Origin: a virus
Taxonomy: Duplodnaviria; Heunggongvirae; Uroviricota; Caudoviricetes
Virus record (IMG/VR): IMGVR_UViG_2713896909_000008
Length of the DNA stretch: 8,052 nucleotides
Direction: 5' to 3' (one strand)
The translations under genes and the position numbers were made by a program. Under the pieces are notes generated by a model. It was not told the origin of the DNA and did no database searches. It was given only the letters and a program-made list of their open reading frames with translations. This document shows positions 1-7,903 of the stretch, one piece after another (position 1 is the first letter of the stretch; every line of letters starts with the position of its first letter).

Positions 1-399
1 TGCCAAAAGCAGACCGGACTCCACCACATCGCCATATTCTTTGTTTAACCCGGCGATCATGTACGTAATGCTTTTTCCGTCAGTAATTTCACAATACAAC
101 CTGAAATCGCTGATCCGGATAGCCTCCATAATTGCCGGAATCAGCGCCGTGAATTTTTCCCGCTTATCCCTGGTGTCGATAGCTTTCCAGCGTTCGAATA
201 TCTTCACCCGGTTAACGCCCAACGCCCGTTGATCAACCTCGCCATCATTAAACGTGACGCGTTGAACATCGATGTTCGGGCGTTCTTTCAGAGCCCAGAA
301 TGCTTCCGTGATTAATATCGTCGCCTGCTCCTGTGTCATTCCTGGTCGGCATACCCAGGCATCCAGAGCCTCACAAACCTGTTCAGGGGTGATTTTCAT
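1..399 (-). CDS. YdaT-like prophage regulator (cII-position gene), partial; C-terminus lies beyond the window start
   Basis: Own minus-strand translation from ATG at 399-397 is open for 133 codons to position 1 (MKITPEQVCEALDAWV...FERWKAIDTRDKREKFTALIPAIMEAI...). The track omits it because it runs off the window. From memory it resembles Rac YdaT (..YHRWLKGETKTQREKIQKLIPAILAIL..). Start overlaps the cro 3' end by 17 nt. Confidence 0.6.
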   Translation of the reverse strand, partial: MKITPEQVCEALDAWVCRPGMTQEQATILITEAFWALKERPNIDVQRVTFNDGEVDQRALGVNRVKIFERWKAIDTRDKREKFTALIPAIMEAIRISDFRLYCEITDGKSITYMIAGLNKEYGDVVESGLLLA

Positions 400-1270: not shown

Positions 1271-1423
1271 ATGGATACTATCGATCTTGGCAACAACGAA
1301 TCTCTGGTGTACGACGTGTTTCCCAACCAGGACGGCACGTTCACCGCGATGACGTATACCAAAAGTAAAACGTTTAAAACCGAAGCTGGCGCGCATCGCT
1401 GGTTAGCAAGAAACTCTGACTGA
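1271..1423 (+). CDS. Small 50-aa prophage protein, first gene of the pL operon (possibly YdaF/DUF1391-like)
   Basis: ATG at 1271 preceded by GAGG (1262-1265). MDTIDLGNNESLVYDVFPNQDGTFTAMTYTKSKTFKTEAGAHRWLARNSD. The track's upstream start at 1193 would sit inside the promoter -10. Family assignment is from memory only. Confidence 0.55.
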   Translation: MDTIDLGNNESLVYDVFPNQDGTFTAMTYTKSKTFKTEAGAHRWLARNSD

Positions 1424-1434
1424 TGAGGTTGACG

Positions 1435-2073
1435 ATGGAATTTAAAGATTTACCTACTTCAATCCAGGAGATTGCAGCACATACACTTCGTCATCGTCTG
1501 AACGAACTTGCATTGGAATCGGTAACGAAAAAAGACACTGATAATATAGCTCGTAATGTGCGCGATGCGTTTACCGGATTGTATTTCTGTGCGTCTATAA
1601 ATAAACACGACTCAGAGAGTGTGGCAAATAAAATTGCAGAAACGACAGCGCAAAACATCAATACGAAACCAACGGAAGAAGAAATTGATCAGTTTGCTCA
1701 TGATGCTGGTTTAAAAAACAAGAAAGAAAAATCGCCATATGCGGGGAACATGTTTGTTTATGACAATCTCATCAGAATTCGTGGCAAAATTCCGGCGGAA
1801 TACCTGGCAAGAGTCCATCAGGCATTGCTTAAAAATCTGGAAACAGAATTATTTGATGGCAACACTAACGGTTTCTTCATGGTATCAGGCCTTGAGAAAG
1901 ACTGGGATGCAGAAAAACGCTGGAATGTTGCTACATGGTTATTCAGTAACAGAGCCGCTGCCCTGGAAGCTTCGGCATGTATTTGCGGCCTGTTCTTAAC
2001 AGACCACAAATATAATCTGGATGTGTACAGTTATATTTACGCTGAACACGGTCCGCTCTGGATTGACTGGTAA
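1435..2073 (+). CDS. Hypothetical protein, 212 aa, AT-rich cargo gene in the sieB/exclusion position
   Basis: Long ORF. Preferred start is ATG 1435 with GAGG (1425-1428) 6 nt upstream; the alternative ATG 1423 overlaps the upstream stop (TGATG) but has no Shine-Dalgarno. No motif I recognise. Visibly more AT-rich than its neighbours. Confidence 0.65.
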   Translation: MEFKDLPTSIQEIAAHTLRHRLNELALESVTKKDTDNIARNVRDAFTGLYFCASINKHDSESVANKIAETTAQNINTKPTEEEIDQFAHDAGLKNKKEKSPYAGNMFVYDNLIRIRGKIPAEYLARVHQALLKNLETELFDGNTNGFFMVSGLEKDWDAEKRWNVATWLFSNRAAALEASACICGLFLTDHKYNLDVYSYIYAEHGPLWIDW

Positions 2074-2283
2074 TTATAAGGAAACACCAGCAGGGCCGCG
2101 GCGACCAACAGAACGATTAAAATCAATAATGCCATTATAAAGGACATTATTTAATTTATCGTCGAATGCTGATTCTGTGAGCCTCAACTCTGAATGAGTT
2201 TTTAATAACCCTGATTGCCTGAGTTGATTTACAAGGCATTCAATCTGTTTTTCAATAAGCGGATTTCTTTTTTTGTTTGGCAT
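2074..2283 (-). CDS. Hypothetical 69-aa protein, convergent with and abutting the 212-aa gene
   Basis: Minus-strand ATG at 2283 preceded by GGAGG (plus 2289-2293) with a 5-nt spacer. MPNKKRNPLIEKQIECLVNQLRQSGLL.... Its stop codon lies immediately next to the stop of the 212-aa gene (TAATTA). Track start at 2295 is a less likely upstream ATG. Confidence 0.45.
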   Translation of the reverse strand: MPNKKRNPLIEKQIECLVNQLRQSGLLKTHSELRLTESAFDDKLNNVLYNGIIDFNRSVGRRGPAGVSL

Positions 2284-3197: not shown

Positions 3198-3900
3198 ATG
3201 AGTAAAGTCTTTATTTGCGCCGCCATTCCGGACGAACAGGCAATAAAGGAAGAAGGTGCAATTGCTGTAGCCACTGCCATTGAAGCCGGTGACGAACGCC
3301 GCGCCCGTGCCAAATTTACCTGGCAATTCCTGGAGCAATATCCGGCTGCTCAGGACTGCGCTTATAAATTTCTTGTCTGCGAGGATAAACCCGGCATGCC
3401 CCGCCCTGCTATCGACTCCTGGGATACCGAATATATGCAGGAAAACCGCTGGGATGAGGAATCCGCTTCCTTTATTCCGGTCGAACCAGAATCCGATCCG
3501 ATGAACGTCAATTTTGACAAGCTGTCCCTTGAAGTACAGAACGCGGTCCTGGTTAAGTTCGGTACATGTGAAAACATCACCGTTGATATGGTGATTAGTG
3601 CTCAGGAATTACTGCAGGAGGACATGGCAACATTCGACGGGCATATCGTTGAGGCATTGATGAAAATGCCTGAAGTTAACGTCATGTATTCAGAGCTTAA
3701 GCTGCTCGCCATCGGGTGGGTTAAACATAAATGTAAGCCGGGTGCAAAATGGCCTGAGATCCAGACAGAATTACGCACCTGGAAAAAACGTCGCGAAGCC
3801 GAACGCAAAGAAACCGGGAAATACACGTCTGTTGTTGATCTTGCCCGCGCCAGAGTCAACCGGCAGAACACTGAAAACTCAGTAGCGACCCCCCCCCCCC
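3198..3900 (+). CDS. RecE N-terminal-like protein, 5' portion, running into the assembly gap
   Basis: ORF from ATG 3198 is open up to the poly-C/N gap. Contains ..ARAKFTWQFLEQY.., which from memory resembles the RecE N-terminus (..EIDFTWSERYQL..). Frame relation across the gap cannot be known. Confidence 0.55.
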
Positions 3901-3961
3901 NNNNNNNNNNNNNNNNNNNNNNNNNNNNNNNNNNNNNNNNNNNNNNNNNNNNNNNNNNNNN
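3889..3961. other. Assembly gap: 12-nt poly-C run followed by 61 N
   Basis: Directly visible: C x12 at 3889-3900, then N x61 at 3901-3961, interrupting an open reading frame on both sides. Confidence 0.95.
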
Positions 3962-5548
3962 CGCAAACAGCCTGATGCCCTTCGCTACGACCGCCAGACT
4001 ATTTTTGGCCTTGTCCGTGAACGTCCGATCGACATTCACAAAGCCCCTGTGGCACTGAACAAATACATTACTGAATACCTGACTACAAAGGGCGTGTTTG
4101 AAGATGAAGGAACAAATCAGAGCGCAACTGATACTCTCTCGTCGCCAGTACCAGAAACTGATGCAGTGGAAACGGCAATTCCGGACAACGAAAAAACCGA
4201 ATGCAAAGTGGAAGTCGAACCATCTGTAGAGCGTGAAGGGCCGTTCTACTTCCTCTTCACCGACAAGGATGGCGAAAAATATGGTCGCGCAAACAAACTT
4301 TCTGGTCTGAATAAGGCGCTGACTGCAGGGGCTACTGAAATCACGAAAGAAGAATATTTTGCCCGCAAAAACGGTACATACTCAGGTTCACAACAAAATA
4401 CTGGTGCATCTGACACGACCGCACAACCAGAGCCGGTAAAAGTTACCGCTGAAGAAGTAAACAAAATTATGCAGGCAGCCAATATCAGCCAGCCTGACGC
4501 CGATAAGTTGCTTGCTGCCTCTCGCGGAGAATTTGTTGCAGGGATTAGCGACCCGAATGATCCGAAATGGGTGAAGGGGATTGAAACCCGCGACTCTGTA
4601 AACCAGAACCAGCAAGAATCGGAACAGAACGACCAGAAAACGGAACAAAACAGCCCAAATGCGCAACAAAACGAGCCAGAAACGAAACAGGTTGAACCAG
4701 TAGCGCAACAGGAGCCGGAAAAAGCCTGCACCGCCTGCGGTCAGACCGGCGGCGGTAGCTGCCCTGATTGTGGTGCGGTGATGGGCGACGCAACATACCA
4801 GGAAATATTCGATGAAGAGAATCAGCCTGAAGTTCAGGAAAATGATCCGGAGGAAATGGAAGGCACTGCGCATCAGCACAAGGAGAACTCTGGCGGCAAT
4901 CAGCATCATGCCAGCGATAGTGAAACTGGCGAGGCGTCAGATCCCTTAATTAAGGTGAACGGTCACCATAATCTCACATCCACCAGCAGAGCGGGGATTC
5001 ATCTGATGATCGACCTTGAAACCATGGGAAAAAATCCTGATGCCCCGATTATCTCAATAGGTGCAATATTTTTCGATCCGCAAACCGGAGATATGGGACC
5101 GGAATTTAGTAAGACTGTCGATCTGGAAACTGCTGGCGGAGTCATTGATCGGGACACCATTAAATGGTGGCTTAAGCAATCACGCGAAGCGCAATCTGCC
5201 ATTATGACCGATGAAATCCCGTTAGATGATGCACTGTTACAATTGCGGGAATTTATCGACGAAAACTCCGGTGAATTTTTTGTTCAGGTCTGGGGAAATG
5301 GAGCAAACTTCGACAACACGATTTTGCGCCGTTCATACGAACGGCAGGGGATCCCCTGCCCGTGGCGTTACTACAACGATCGCGATATACGCACAATCGT
5401 TGAGCTGGGGAAAGCCATAGACTTCGATGCCAGAACTGCTATCCCATTCGAAGGTGAGCGCCATAATGCACTTGATGACGCTCGTTACCAGGCAAAATAC
5501 GTTTCAGCTATCTGGCAAAAACTGATCCCGAGTCAGGCTGATTTTTAA
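3962..5548 (+). CDS. 3' portion of the large gene: acidic Q/E-rich linker, CxxC-x7-CxxC zinc ribbon, C-terminal DnaQ-like DEDDh 3'-5' exonuclease domain
   Basis: Frame is open from the first base after the gap (RKQPDALRYDRQ...) through the track ORF 4049..5548. Zinc ribbon CTACGQTGGGSCPDC at 4727-4771. Exo I MIDLETMG (from 5005), Exo II WGNGANFDNTIL, Exo III HNALDDARY. An internal ATG at 5005 with a GGGGA Shine-Dalgarno could also express the domain alone. Confidence 0.7.
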   Translation, partial: RKQPDALRYDRQTIFGLVRERPIDIHKAPVALNKYITEYLTTKGVFEDEGTNQSATDTLSSPVPETDAVETAIPDNEKTECKVEVEPSVEREGPFYFLFTDKDGEKYGRANKLSGLNKALTAGATEITKEEYFARKNGTYSGSQQNTGASDTTAQPEPVKVTAEEVNKIMQAANISQPDADKLLAASRGEFVAGISDPNDPKWVKGIETRDSVNQNQQESEQNDQKTEQNSPNAQQNEPETKQVEPVAQQEPEKACTACGQTGGGSCPDCGAVMGDATYQEIFDEENQPEVQENDPEEMEGTAHQHKENSGGNQHHASDSETGEASDPLIKVNGHHNLTSTSRAGIHLMIDLETMGKNPDAPIISIGAIFFDPQTGDMGPEFSKTVDLETAGGVIDRDTIKWWLKQSREAQSAIMTDEIPLDDALLQLREFIDENSGEFFVQVWGNGANFDNTILRRSYERQGIPCPWRYYNDRDIRTIVELGKAIDFDARTAIPFEGERHNALDDARYQAKYVSAIWQKLIPSQADF

Positions 5549-5600: not shown

Positions 5601-5810
5601 ATGGCTATGAGCAGCTTATTTTTAACCGAAGATGAATTGCTAATATTAACGGGCTGCAAATATGCAAGCCACCAGCGAAAATGGTTAATGGAAAACGGGC
5701 TTCCGTTCTATACCAATCGTAGTGGCAAACCGATTGTCAGCCGGGATCTATTTACCTGCAATAAAACTTTACCACCGCGCGAGGTAGAGCCGAATTTTGG
5801 TGCAATCTGA
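5601..5810 (+). CDS. Small DUF4224-like protein in the excisionase position, translationally coupled to the integrase
   Basis: 69-aa ORF immediately upstream of int, with its stop overlapping the int start (TGATG at 5808-5812). Small proteins of this kind typically precede lambdoid integrases. DUF4224 assignment is from memory. Confidence 0.6.
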   Translation: MAMSSLFLTEDELLILTGCKYASHQRKWLMENGLPFYTNRSGKPIVSRDLFTCNKTLPPREVEPNFGAI

Positions 5811-6835
5811 TGGGAAGACGAAGGAAAAATCCTGAACACGAAAAATTACCTCCAAATGTATACCCAAATAAATATAGTTATGTATGGAAACCAACATCCA
5901 GAGAATCTGTCACACTAACCGCCATCAAGGATGGTTTAGCTGCTTTATGGAAAAAGTATGAGGAAACTGTAAATAATCGCGATCGCGCAATGACATTCGG
6001 TCGCTTGTGGGAAAAATTCCTCGCCAACGCCTATTACAGTGACCTCAGTCCAAGAACACAAAAAGATTATCTGCAACATCAAAAAAAGTTGCTTGCCGTA
6101 TTCGGTAAGGTGCCGGCAGATTCCATAAAACCAGAACACATCCGTCGATACATGGACAAGAGAGGGGAACAGAGTAAAACGCAAGCCAACCATGAAAAAA
6201 GCAGTATGTCCCGCGTTTACAGTTGGGGGTATGAGCGAGGGTACGTGAAGGGTAACCCATGTGCAGGTGTAAGTAAATTCAAGGCCAAAAACCGCGAACG
6301 ATATGTAACCGACAAAGAATACCAGGCAGTATTAAGTGTTGCACCTCTTCCTGTTTTTATCGCAATGGAAATTGCCTATCTGTGTGCAGCGAGGGTTTCC
6401 GATGTGTTATCACTGAAATGGGAGCAGATTGGAAGCGACGGGATCTTTATCCAGCAAGGGAAAACAGGGAAAAAACAGATAAAAGCATGGAGTCCACGAT
6501 TACAGGCGGCGATCGAAAAAGCAAAACAGTTACCAACATCTGCCTATGTAATCAGCAATCAATATGGCAACCGATATATGTACAAAGGTTTTAACGAAAT
6601 GTGGGTAGAAGCAAGAAATCACGCAGGCAAAATTTCAGGTATTTTAACCGACTTCACCTTTCATGAGCTGAAGGCGAAAGGAATTTCAGACTATGAAGGA
6701 AGCAGCCGGGATAAGCAACTTTTCTCTGGTCACAAAACCGAAGGGCAAGTGCTAATCTATGACAGAAAGGTTAAAGTTTCACCAACACTTGATGTCCCGT
6801 TATCTGATAATATTCCAAGAAAATATTCCAAGTAA
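5810..6835 (+). CDS. int: Lambda-family tyrosine integrase
   Basis: 341 aa. N-terminus MGRRRKNPEHEKLPPNVYP resembles lambda Int (MGRRRSHERRDLPPNLYIR). Catalytic region has R (AARVSD), H-E-L-K, GHK and the Y of LIYDR with lambda-like spacing. Lies beside a tRNA-derived att core. Confidence 0.9.
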   Translation: MGRRRKNPEHEKLPPNVYPNKYSYVWKPTSRESVTLTAIKDGLAALWKKYEETVNNRDRAMTFGRLWEKFLANAYYSDLSPRTQKDYLQHQKKLLAVFGKVPADSIKPEHIRRYMDKRGEQSKTQANHEKSSMSRVYSWGYERGYVKGNPCAGVSKFKAKNRERYVTDKEYQAVLSVAPLPVFIAMEIAYLCAARVSDVLSLKWEQIGSDGIFIQQGKTGKKQIKAWSPRLQAAIEKAKQLPTSAYVISNQYGNRYMYKGFNEMWVEARNHAGKISGILTDFTFHELKAKGISDYEGSSRDKQLFSGHKTEGQVLIYDRKVKVSPTLDVPLSDNIPRKYSK

Positions 6836-6887: not shown

Positions 6888-6953
6888 TGGCGGAGAGAGG
6901 GGGATTTGAACCCCCGGTGGAGTTGCCCCCACTCCGGTTTTCGAGACCGGTCC
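6888..6953 (-). other. att core: 3'-terminal 66 nt of a tRNA-Ser(CGA) gene (anticodon arm, variable arm, T arm, acceptor 3' strand, CCA); 5' half absent
   Basis: Minus strand reads GGACCGGTCTCGAAAACCGGAGTGGGGGCAACTCCACCGGGGGTTCAAATCCCCCTCTCTCCGCCA. This matches the 3' part of E. coli serU as remembered, with a compensatory pair change in the variable arm. No GGAGAGA acceptor 5' strand or D arm is present upstream. Confidence 0.7.
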
Positions 6954-7033
6954 AATCATCAAACGAAACATAAAATTAGCTCACATTATGAGGAAAAGTA
7001 TCTTTTTTGTACTATGTAAATTCAAAGGCTTAG

Positions 7034-7903
<870 letters not shown>

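Follow-up and report, generated by a model that had tools for sequence, protein, structure and literature searches.

A polymorphic, convergent two-gene cassette in the early-left operon of a Qin/Rac-like lambdoid prophage

The 8,052 nucleotides (nt) of IMG/VR virus record IMGVR_UViG_2713896909_000008 analyzed here (the window) are the early-left, dicBF-type operon of a Qin/Rac-like lambdoid prophage, with the gene order DicC-like Cro, DicA-like repressor, early promoter, ydfA, a pair of convergent genes, the small RNA (sRNA) DicF, kil, exonuclease, xis and int. The convergent pair is our subject. Its forward gene (1435-2073, + strand) encodes 212 amino acids (aa) and its reverse gene (2283-2074, - strand) 69 aa; both are in the list of open reading frames (ORFs), their products match phrog_2151 ('Ybl81'; E=9e-145) and phrog_4274 (E=1e-51), respectively, and RefSeq calls both hypothetical. 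Sequence comparisons indicate that this pair is one version, referred to as type A, of at least six interchangeable versions of a two-gene cassette, and our working model is that the two products are reciprocally expressed cognate partners in a conflict system.

A preliminary description of positions 1271-2283 had reported a 212-aa gene with a directly abutting convergent 69-aa gene, and the coordinates and stops are confirmed: the forward gene ends in TAA at 2071-2073, and the adjoining TTA at 2074-2076 is the minus-strand TAA of the reverse gene. The pair does not begin at 1271, which is the ATG of a separate ydfA-like DUF1391 gene (1271-1423, +, 50 aa; Pfam PF07151, 95 bits, with DUF1391 annotation in relatives) that had gone unmentioned; this is the first gene of the early-left operon and belongs to the backbone, outside the cassette. 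There is an alternative 216-aa reading of the forward gene from 1423; homologues begin at MEFK, as does the 212-aa version. In every context just 11-20 nt separate the forward gene from the preceding early gene, too few to hold a separate promoter, and the forward gene is accordingly expected to be silent as long as a lysogen is repressed. The reverse gene does have the strong Shine-Dalgarno (SD) sequence attributed to it, a GGAGG located 5 nt before its ATG. No terminator-like sites are predicted on either strand between 1126 and 3142, so that the forward and reverse transcripts would overlap, as had been proposed for their 3' ends, and because DicF lies downstream of the cassette the early transcript must run antisense across the 69-aa gene.

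The reverse ORF is a real gene, since in comparisons with the Salmonella and Escherichia sp. copies its ratio of nonsynonymous to synonymous substitution rates (dN/dS) is lower in its own frame, at 0.19-0.26, than in any of the other five; a non-coding antisense artifact is thereby ruled out. In the forward gene dN/dS is 0.1-0.2 in the C-terminal domain and 0.4-0.9 in the first 60 codons, in which dS exceeds 1 between allele groups. The AT-richness ascribed to the 212-aa gene is real, with 41.3% GC against 45.2% for the window, but it is modest and not unique, as kil (36.7%), int (42.3%) and the 69-aa gene (36.7%) also show.

The window was compared with related loci (80 IMG/VR prophage loci and other fetched loci, given as L numbers), and its positions 1100-2900 with 5,426 complete Escherichia coli genomes. 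In blastn alignments of the window with loci carrying other alleles, homology stops at 1476-1583 and resumes at 2272-2344; the constant parts on either side are hence the forward gene's 5' portion and the reverse gene's leader, and the core swapped between them comprises the forward C-terminal domain and the body of the small ORF. The other versions are type B (L099), with P0161 (179 aa) and a zinc-ribbon-like protein of 80 aa whose gene overlaps by 20 nt and has the same first five codons, MPNKP; type C (L102), with P0177 (153 aa) and a candidate partner of 91 aa; type D (L103), with P0189 (201 aa) and 63 aa; type E (L105), with P0183 (133 aa) and 57/61 aa; and type F (L005/L006), a 119-aa and 64-aa pair that in Salmonella stands behind type A as a second, tandem cassette. 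Common to all types are the N-terminal module and, on the side of the reverse gene, a promoter-like site and the leader; the cores are unrelated, and in types A-F the allele-specific C-terminal domain and small ORF are always exchanged together. The other alleles have no Pfam, NCBIfam or PADLOC match beyond a helix-turn-helix (HTH) and isolated weak ones (E ~0.006-0.03). DNA of the N-terminal module is present at 1,494 places in 944 of the E. coli genomes, about one in six, with O157:H7 and O145 among the carriers, and the cassette also occurs in Salmonella and in Escherichia albertii, the recorded source of the exact 212-aa sequence.

The two type A genes are closely linked. Partial matches to the compared part of the window occur in 4,740 of the 5,426 genomes, and matches over at least 80% of its length in 560. 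DNA of the type A C-terminal domain is found at 751 places in 600 genomes and the 69-aa gene at 744 places in 597, all 744 lying among the 751, and the two are joined in at least 594 genomes; none of the 744 E. coli places has the small gene without large-gene sequence. The genes are convergent, with 3' ends that abut or overlap, in all loci, and wherever related loci have both genes complete their stops almost always abut, the spacing in L080 and L095 being off by a few bases. Of the IMG/VR loci with enough length for the two genes, nearly all have an intact pair with abutting stops, the exceptions besides L080 and L095 being three deletion variants. The same pair is found behind ydfA, ydfB, ydfC or an unrelated Salmonella 106-aa gene, and it moves as a unit into three other prophage backbones, the repressor beside it being DicA-type, LexA-like S24-type or Mu-type according to the backbone. 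The preliminary description had asked about conservation in related prophages, and the pair is indeed kept across E. coli genomes, IMG/VR loci and several backbones.

More distant relatives preserve the arrangement. In a profile search of 1.84 billion cluster representatives, only P0181 and P0190 resemble the C-terminal domain distantly outside the 212-aa family, with 39% and 33% identity, respectively, over its best-aligned part. Both are in integrase-repressor-Cox elements, and in P0181 a Cro/CI-type HTH (Pfam HTH_3, 26.2 bits; cut-off 23) separates the N-terminal from the C-terminal domain. Downstream of each, and overlapping it, is a convergent gene of 64/69 aa whose product is 44-52% identical to the 69-aa protein of the window and keeps its tail motif. 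A scan of GTDB species representatives gave no relatives, and tblastn against 50,697 deposited phage genomes found no full-length copy of either gene and only the N-terminal module.

It could be argued that the pair consists of two unrelated cargo genes that hitch-hike together, their arrangement kept by recent descent and by recombination at conserved flanks. Most E. coli copies are at least 95% identical, and hence of recent shared ancestry, and lambdoid mosaics have preferred recombination joints. We consider this explanation very unlikely, as in a different backbone the genes are still paired at identities down to ~33-39% over the alignable part of the large C-terminal domain and 44-52% for the small protein, five other alleles have the same two-gene layout with different cores, and both genes are under purifying selection. 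Co-occurrence, joint movement and co-divergence thus support, at the level of sequence, the view that the pair is a functional unit.

Loss of the pair is uneven. An internal deletion that recurs in A19 (L012), L083, L093 and L096 has taken out the small gene and spared the large one, and two Salmonella genomes have a small gene frameshifted by one base close to its 3' end. Both genes are damaged in RM13752, the large one by IS100 and the small one by a stop codon. We had entertained the 69-aa protein as an obligate antitoxin, a role weakened by the survival of the large gene after loss of the small one.

The 212-aa protein is acidic (isoelectric point [pI] 5.5) and soluble, with no transmembrane segment, and its homologues are confined to Escherichia and Salmonella. 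It has two parts. The constant N-terminal helical module (1435-1600, +), delimited from PHROG and hidden Markov model (HMM) matches, the blastn breakpoints and an AlphaFold2 (AF2) model, evolves fast and as a mosaic, and is found in all cassette alleles and in other small phage proteins, the first ~50-90 residues recurring ahead of many other C-termini: PHROG matches to other families cover only residues 1-50..75, and an exhaustive HMM search gave ~45 clusters that share only residues 1-35..93. YdfB, YdfC and YdaG were considered as relatives of this module and rejected on reading their sequences. We also note that in the Shiga toxin phage VT2phi_272 (L004 4001-4444) the module is carried on a 147-aa protein encoded in the early-left region of Stx2a phages, between DUF2303 and PAPS reductase genes and with no convergent partner annotated. 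The type A C-terminal alpha/beta domain (residues ~98-212; 1726-2070, +) carries FDGxxNGxF and WxFS...AAxE motifs. The residues that it keeps with the distant clade are mainly hydrophobic, plus E98, D141, N145, S171 and E178, and no His, Arg or Lys is conserved in that comparison. The AF2 model (predicted local distance difference test [pLDDT] 67.6) consists of an N-terminal helical bundle followed by a C-terminal domain of the order strand-strand-helix-strand-strand-helix-strand.

The 69-aa protein is basic (pI 9.7) and soluble, with no hydrophobic segment; the maximum in a 19-residue Kyte-Doolittle window is 0.22, compared to 1.16 for the 212-aa protein. Its AF2 model (pLDDT 71) has helices at residues 8-24 and 37-61 and a tail with pLDDT below 50. 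This tail, GRRGPAGVxL, is disordered and conserved, including in the distant homologues at L015 and L018. The structure predictions suggested in the preliminary description thus yielded models of both proteins and no structural neighbor for either: fold searches with the 212-aa protein gave no specific match, Foldseek of the 69-aa model against PDB gave none, and neither the model nor Foldseek predicts a DNA-binding fold for the small protein.

Neither protein has a match in Pfam (E<=0.1), NCBIfam or PADLOC-DB v2.0.0 (E<=1), and the neighboring gene at 7079-7903, which matches PD-T4-3, serves as a positive control for PADLOC. Sequence searches of PDB, both single-sequence and profile, returned only noise (E>0.5). 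No literature was found on the function of Ybl81, DUF1391, the protein accessions or the PHROG identifiers, nor on either protein or the cassette polymorphism; a paper on the sRNA svsR was set aside, as it concerns a different locus. The pair lies outside SieB, Rex, type II toxin-antitoxin and all PADLOC families. The preliminary description had put forward an exclusion or defense function, and in this it is not borne out, given the lack of PADLOC, Pfam or NCBIfam matches and of a structural relative, together with the expected silence of the 212-aa gene in a lysogen, which would be unusual for a prophage defense effector.

The reverse gene is preceded by a conserved three-hairpin leader of 88 nt (2284-2371, -), found in every allele and backbone, and this structured leader and the polymorphic allele family were both missed in the preliminary description. 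The leader contains, on the minus strand, a first hairpin, hp1 (2370-2349; GCCGGA-N12-TCCGGC), a second hairpin, hp2 (2343-2319), and an anti-SD sequence, CTCCAT (2319-2314), that faces the SD sequence ATGGAG (2295-2290). The hp2 stems occur in four versions (ACCACACG/CGTGTTGGT, CUCCAC/GUGGAG, CCCAAC/GUUGGG and UUCCCGA/UCGGGAA), and in two alleles CUCCU lies opposite AGGAG, by which one anti-SD/SD pair changes from A-U to U-A. RNAfold predicts hp1 and hp2 in nine of nine leaders tested, with most SD bases paired in most of them, and the folding z-score of the window leader is -2.7. As to which strand forms the hairpins, G-U wobble pairs favor the minus strand in two variants and the plus strand in three. 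No Rfam family was found in the leader. The full leader is present in 923 of the complete E. coli genomes, and hp1 with the promoter-like part in 3,526, including K-12, in which no small gene follows.

Conservation of the leader ends exactly at hp1. Five contexts are unrelated further upstream, yet in each the best -10-like hexamer is placed exactly 6 nt short of hp1 (TAAACT, TAAAAT, TATAAC, TATAGG and CAGCAT). This fixed spacing suggests a weak promoter, with a predicted transcription start at the hp1 base, near 2371. In the window the putative promoter (2378-2406, -) comprises a -35 element, TTTTCA (2406-2401), a 17-nt spacer and a -10 element, TAAACT (2383-2378). A site proposed by the consensus scan at 2311-2282 (-) was rejected, as its -10 element overlaps the start codon. 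On the minus strand downstream of ydfC in K-12, the promoter-like TTTTCA-17-TAAACT is also kept (window equivalent 2343-2410), and from this retained site and the hairpins either an antisense transcript facing ydfC is predicted, or the hairpins act in the dicBF mRNA.

The leader also bears on the possibility that the cassette is a regulatory module, a switch that tunes early-left read-through into DicF, dicB and kil, or the choice between lysis and lysogeny, with the small basic protein as an autoregulator that binds RNA or DNA at hp1/hp2 and the large one antagonizing it. The hp1 and hp2 inverted repeats could be operators, and they persist in K-12; the immunity switch is in all cases one to three genes away from the pair, the tail of the small protein is basic, and the distant relative P0181 contains a Cro/CI-type HTH. 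We nevertheless regard such a switch as unlikely, since six or more unrelated alleles would be unexpected for regulators of a conserved backbone, small proteins in the other types are either acidic or of the zinc-ribbon kind, K-12 Qin manages this operon without the pair, and the 69-aa protein has no predicted DNA-binding fold.

Expression of the forward gene is expected to depend on the early-left promoter. A P_dicB-type promoter-like site, TTGACC-17-TAATAT (1165-1194, +), was located by promoter scan and by reading the sequence, and it is flanked by operator-like repeats (TTAGCCAT) that also occur between the cro-like and repressor genes. The cassette had been called pL-proximal cargo; it does occupy a cargo slot beside the immunity region, although the promoter is of the DicA-controlled P_dicB type and not lambda pL proper. 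The immunity region itself consists of the P22-Cro/DicC-like gene (613-383, -; Pfam P22_Cro) and the DicA-like HTH repressor gene (697-1104, +; Pfam HTH_3), which is followed by a hairpin near 1096-1126. Downstream of the cassette a non-coding stretch of ~340 nt separates the 69-aa gene from DicF (2621-2672, +; Rfam RF00039, 76.4 bits, E=5e-16), which again is part of the backbone. The DicA/DicC-type switch, DUF1391 ydfA and DicF are colinear with K-12 Qin, which places the window in a dicBF-type context.

The K-12 Qin dicBF operon (ydfA-ydfB-ydfC-dicF-dicB-ydfD) has the same backbone at 87-92% DNA identity and shares the DicC-like Cro, the DicA-like repressor, the P_dicB region, ydfA, the DicF precursor and DicF; the K-12 dicA-ydfA interval is ~87% identical to the promoter region of the window. 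K-12 makes a long dicBF transcript that starts at the DicA-repressed promoter, covers ydfABC and extends to DicF and dicB, and from which DicF is processed (PMC5069750). The pair occupies the slot of ydfB/ydfC, and whereas these two genes are co-directional, those of the pair are convergent; likewise, Qin has dicB-ydfD where the window has a kil-like ORF and a dicB remnant.

The position of the cassette resembles that of sieB in Rac, which supports the earlier proposal that it lies in a slot used by sieB-type genes. Rac sieB has the same slot and orientation as the 69-aa gene, is convergent with the DUF1391 gene ydaF with a 4-nt overlap, and has the sRNA KilS and then kilR downstream. In Rac, lambda and P22, sieB (with esc) provides superinfection exclusion with self-immunity: lysogens express SieB, and by means of Esc the phage is spared from excluding itself. 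The position of the 69-aa gene matches that of Rac sieB, while its expression in a lysogen is suggested only by the weak promoter-like site. In other respects the systems differ. There is no sequence or fold similarity, the PHROG matches of the pair being only to families without a function; SieB, of ~160-190 aa, is a membrane protein, unlike the soluble 69-aa protein; Esc is made in frame from within sieB, in contrast to the separate convergent gene here; sieB is not known to be polymorphic with a co-swapped partner; and Rac is without the hp1/hp2 leader.

Relatives carry type II toxin-antitoxin pairs near this position. In A19 (L012 2307-2777) RelB and a frameshifted RelE, and in L105 (1397-2061) a HigB toxin and an HTH protein, lie between the repressor and DUF1391 genes, which makes the interval at the early promoter a general cargo hotspot. 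The cassette has in common with such systems a small two-gene module, a probable cognate protein pair (basic and acidic in type A) and a location next to the immunity region. It differs in being convergent rather than a co-directional autoregulated bicistron, in matching no toxin or antitoxin family, and in its predicted reciprocal rather than joint expression. Another gene of the same antisense slot, between the cassette and DicF/dicB, is seen in L012 (4015-4527, -) and L013 (6156-6668, -); it is convergent and encodes 170 aa with a coiled-coil N-terminus and a CxxC...CxxC zinc-ribbon C-terminus, with no Pfam match.

In its organization the pair resembles polymorphic toxin/immunity cassettes, with a large protein that has a constant N-terminal and a variable C-terminal part, a small gene directly downstream that is swapped with the C-terminal domain (here convergent, not co-directional), several alleles, and tandem cassettes in Salmonella. 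In the operons of pore-forming colicins, an inducible toxin gene is followed by an immunity gene that is convergent and constitutive, and then by a gene expressed through read-through. The layout here is equivalent: the large gene is inducible, the small one faces it and is presumably constitutive, and the genes beyond depend on read-through. The large early protein could therefore be an effector made at induction, its variable C-terminal domain being toxic or serving host takeover, and the small constitutive gene its cognate immunity against leaky early transcription, in an operon that already encodes the toxic products DicF, DicB and Kil (PMC5069750). We consider this polarity possible but doubtful. 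Several lineages in which the small gene is deleted or frameshifted still have an intact large gene, a loss pattern that argues against the large protein as an immunity-requiring toxin, and no orphan small genes were seen, though toxin/immunity systems commonly include orphan immunity genes. In type A the C-terminal domain lacks conserved catalytic-type residues, and neither protein has a recognizable toxin or immunity fold. There is no secretion, receptor-binding or translocation domain and no secretion gene among the neighbors; the small proteins are soluble, not membrane proteins, and the locus lies within a phage early operon rather than on a Col plasmid or in a contact-dependent inhibition, Rhs or type VI secretion locus.

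We tentatively favor the opposite polarity, in which the 69-aa protein would be an interference effector expressed in the lysogen and the 212-aa protein an allele-specific neutralizer made early, by the logic of SieB and Esc. This assignment, which we hold to be a fair distance short of probable, is favored because of the one-sided loss, the absence of catalytic-type residues in the C-terminal domain and the position of Rac sieB, and the contrast in pI between the small and large proteins is counted in its favor. Reciprocal expression is suggested by the lack of a forward-gene promoter and of a terminator between the genes. The cassette layout is typical of phage-phage or phage-host conflict genes, and the polymorphism makes some conflict role more plausible, a role in defense being conjectural.

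Under this effector/neutralizer model, the C-terminal domain and the small protein would be cognate binding partners. As long as the lysogen is repressed, the small gene would be read from its own weak promoter, giving an mRNA that opens with a protective 5' hairpin, in which the masked SD sequence would throttle translation, and that reads in antisense into the forward gene's 3' half. Release of the early promoter by the DicA-like repressor would allow synthesis of the large protein, and convergent transcription together with sense-antisense pairing would then switch the small gene off; the antisense or mutual control put forward earlier is thus architecturally plausible. The basic 69-aa protein would interfere with incoming related phages, and the acidic C-terminal domain would neutralize a 69-aa protein of the same allele, such that a phage with the matching allele makes the neutralizer first. 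Competition among co-resident lambdoid prophages may drive the allele diversity. A fuller reading, of an undescribed polymorphic effector/neutralizer system that amounts to allele-specific recognition among lambdoid prophages, in which a small effector aborts or excludes related phages, only a matching C-terminal domain on the first early protein provides escape, and the shared promoter, the leader and convergent transcription enforce either-or expression, seems to us rather unlikely. The preliminary observation is essentially right, and its interpretation as a cargo pair with antisense coupling is supported.

Several observations weigh against the favored roles and the expression scheme. First, the promoter-like site at 2378-2406 has 8 of 12 consensus positions and falls under the threshold of the consensus scan, and the weak promoter is itself conjectural. 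Secondly, the hairpins are near-palindromic and would therefore form in the forward early transcript too, where they may act, and K-12 Qin (L002 ~2043-2140) keeps hp1, hp2 and the anti-SD sequence without the small gene. Thirdly, the one-sided loss pattern represents one recurrent deletion lineage. The small proteins of types C-E are acidic, which limits charge complementarity to type A, and a soluble two-helix protein of 69 aa has no obvious way to block a phage. Moreover, because no full-length copies were found among phage genomes, the carriers may be largely defective prophages, in which case self-immunity at induction would matter little.

If the cassette is a conflict module, it would constitute a new family, with at least six alleles, of phage-phage or phage-host interference genes, and would give testable roles to phrog_2151, 4274, 1363, 10133, 2605 and 4987, which are now without any. 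It would also be a compact natural two-state device that combines convergent transcription, a 5'-hairpin leader and a masked ribosome-binding site. The operon in which it sits is already tied to phage resistance and cell-division control through DicB, DicF and Kil, and DicB protects against phages according to the title of one report (PMC6832061). Were the cassette regulatory instead, it would still be relevant to the gating of DicF, DicB and Kil expression in the prophages of pathogenic E. coli.

To the right of DicF is a kil-like ORF for an FtsZ inhibitor (2840-2986, +, 48 aa; phrog_294, E=2e-20), a backbone gene for which the annotation of the relative L001 is further evidence; it scores 81 bits against NCBIfam NF008465, under the cut-off of 92, and is short compared to the 73-aa KilR of Rac. 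In the near-identical locus L001, RefSeq annotates a dicB fragment directly 5' of kil (~2740-2830), and because of this fragment and the short kil the cell-division-inhibitor part of the operon looks decayed or rearranged. A large 3'-5' exonuclease gene (3198-5548) follows, which encodes ~823 aa in relatives and in the window is present as two ORFs (3198-4058 and 4049-5548); it is interrupted by a run of 61 N bases (3901-3961), which may be an assembly gap or masking and not a real disruption. The xis (5601-5810) and int (5810-6835) genes come next. Adjoining int at 6891-6984 is a tRNA-like fragment with a sub-threshold Rfam match to tRNA-Sec (31 bits, minus strand) and a spurious match to a plastid untranslated region, and with no tRNA called there by ARAGORN; it is probably a partial tRNA at the prophage attachment site. 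Just beyond the integrase and this fragment lies the PD-T4-3 anti-phage defense gene (7079-7903, +, 274 aa), which covers the full PADLOC model with E=2.7e-140.

Downstream of the cassettes in Salmonella L005 (8251-9576, +) are three tandem copies of C4 antisense RNA (Rfam, 74-82 bits), two of them preceded by isrK, interleaved with genes of the Phage_ASH/Derepression family; this repeated immunity module of the P1/P7 type was unexpected here. In the window, a sub-threshold Rfam match to STnc100 (36 bits against a gathering threshold of 47) spans the DicF-kil spacer (2674-2859, +), and a minus-strand promoter-like sequence, TTAACA-16-GAGAAT (2782-2755), would give an RNA antisense to DicF.

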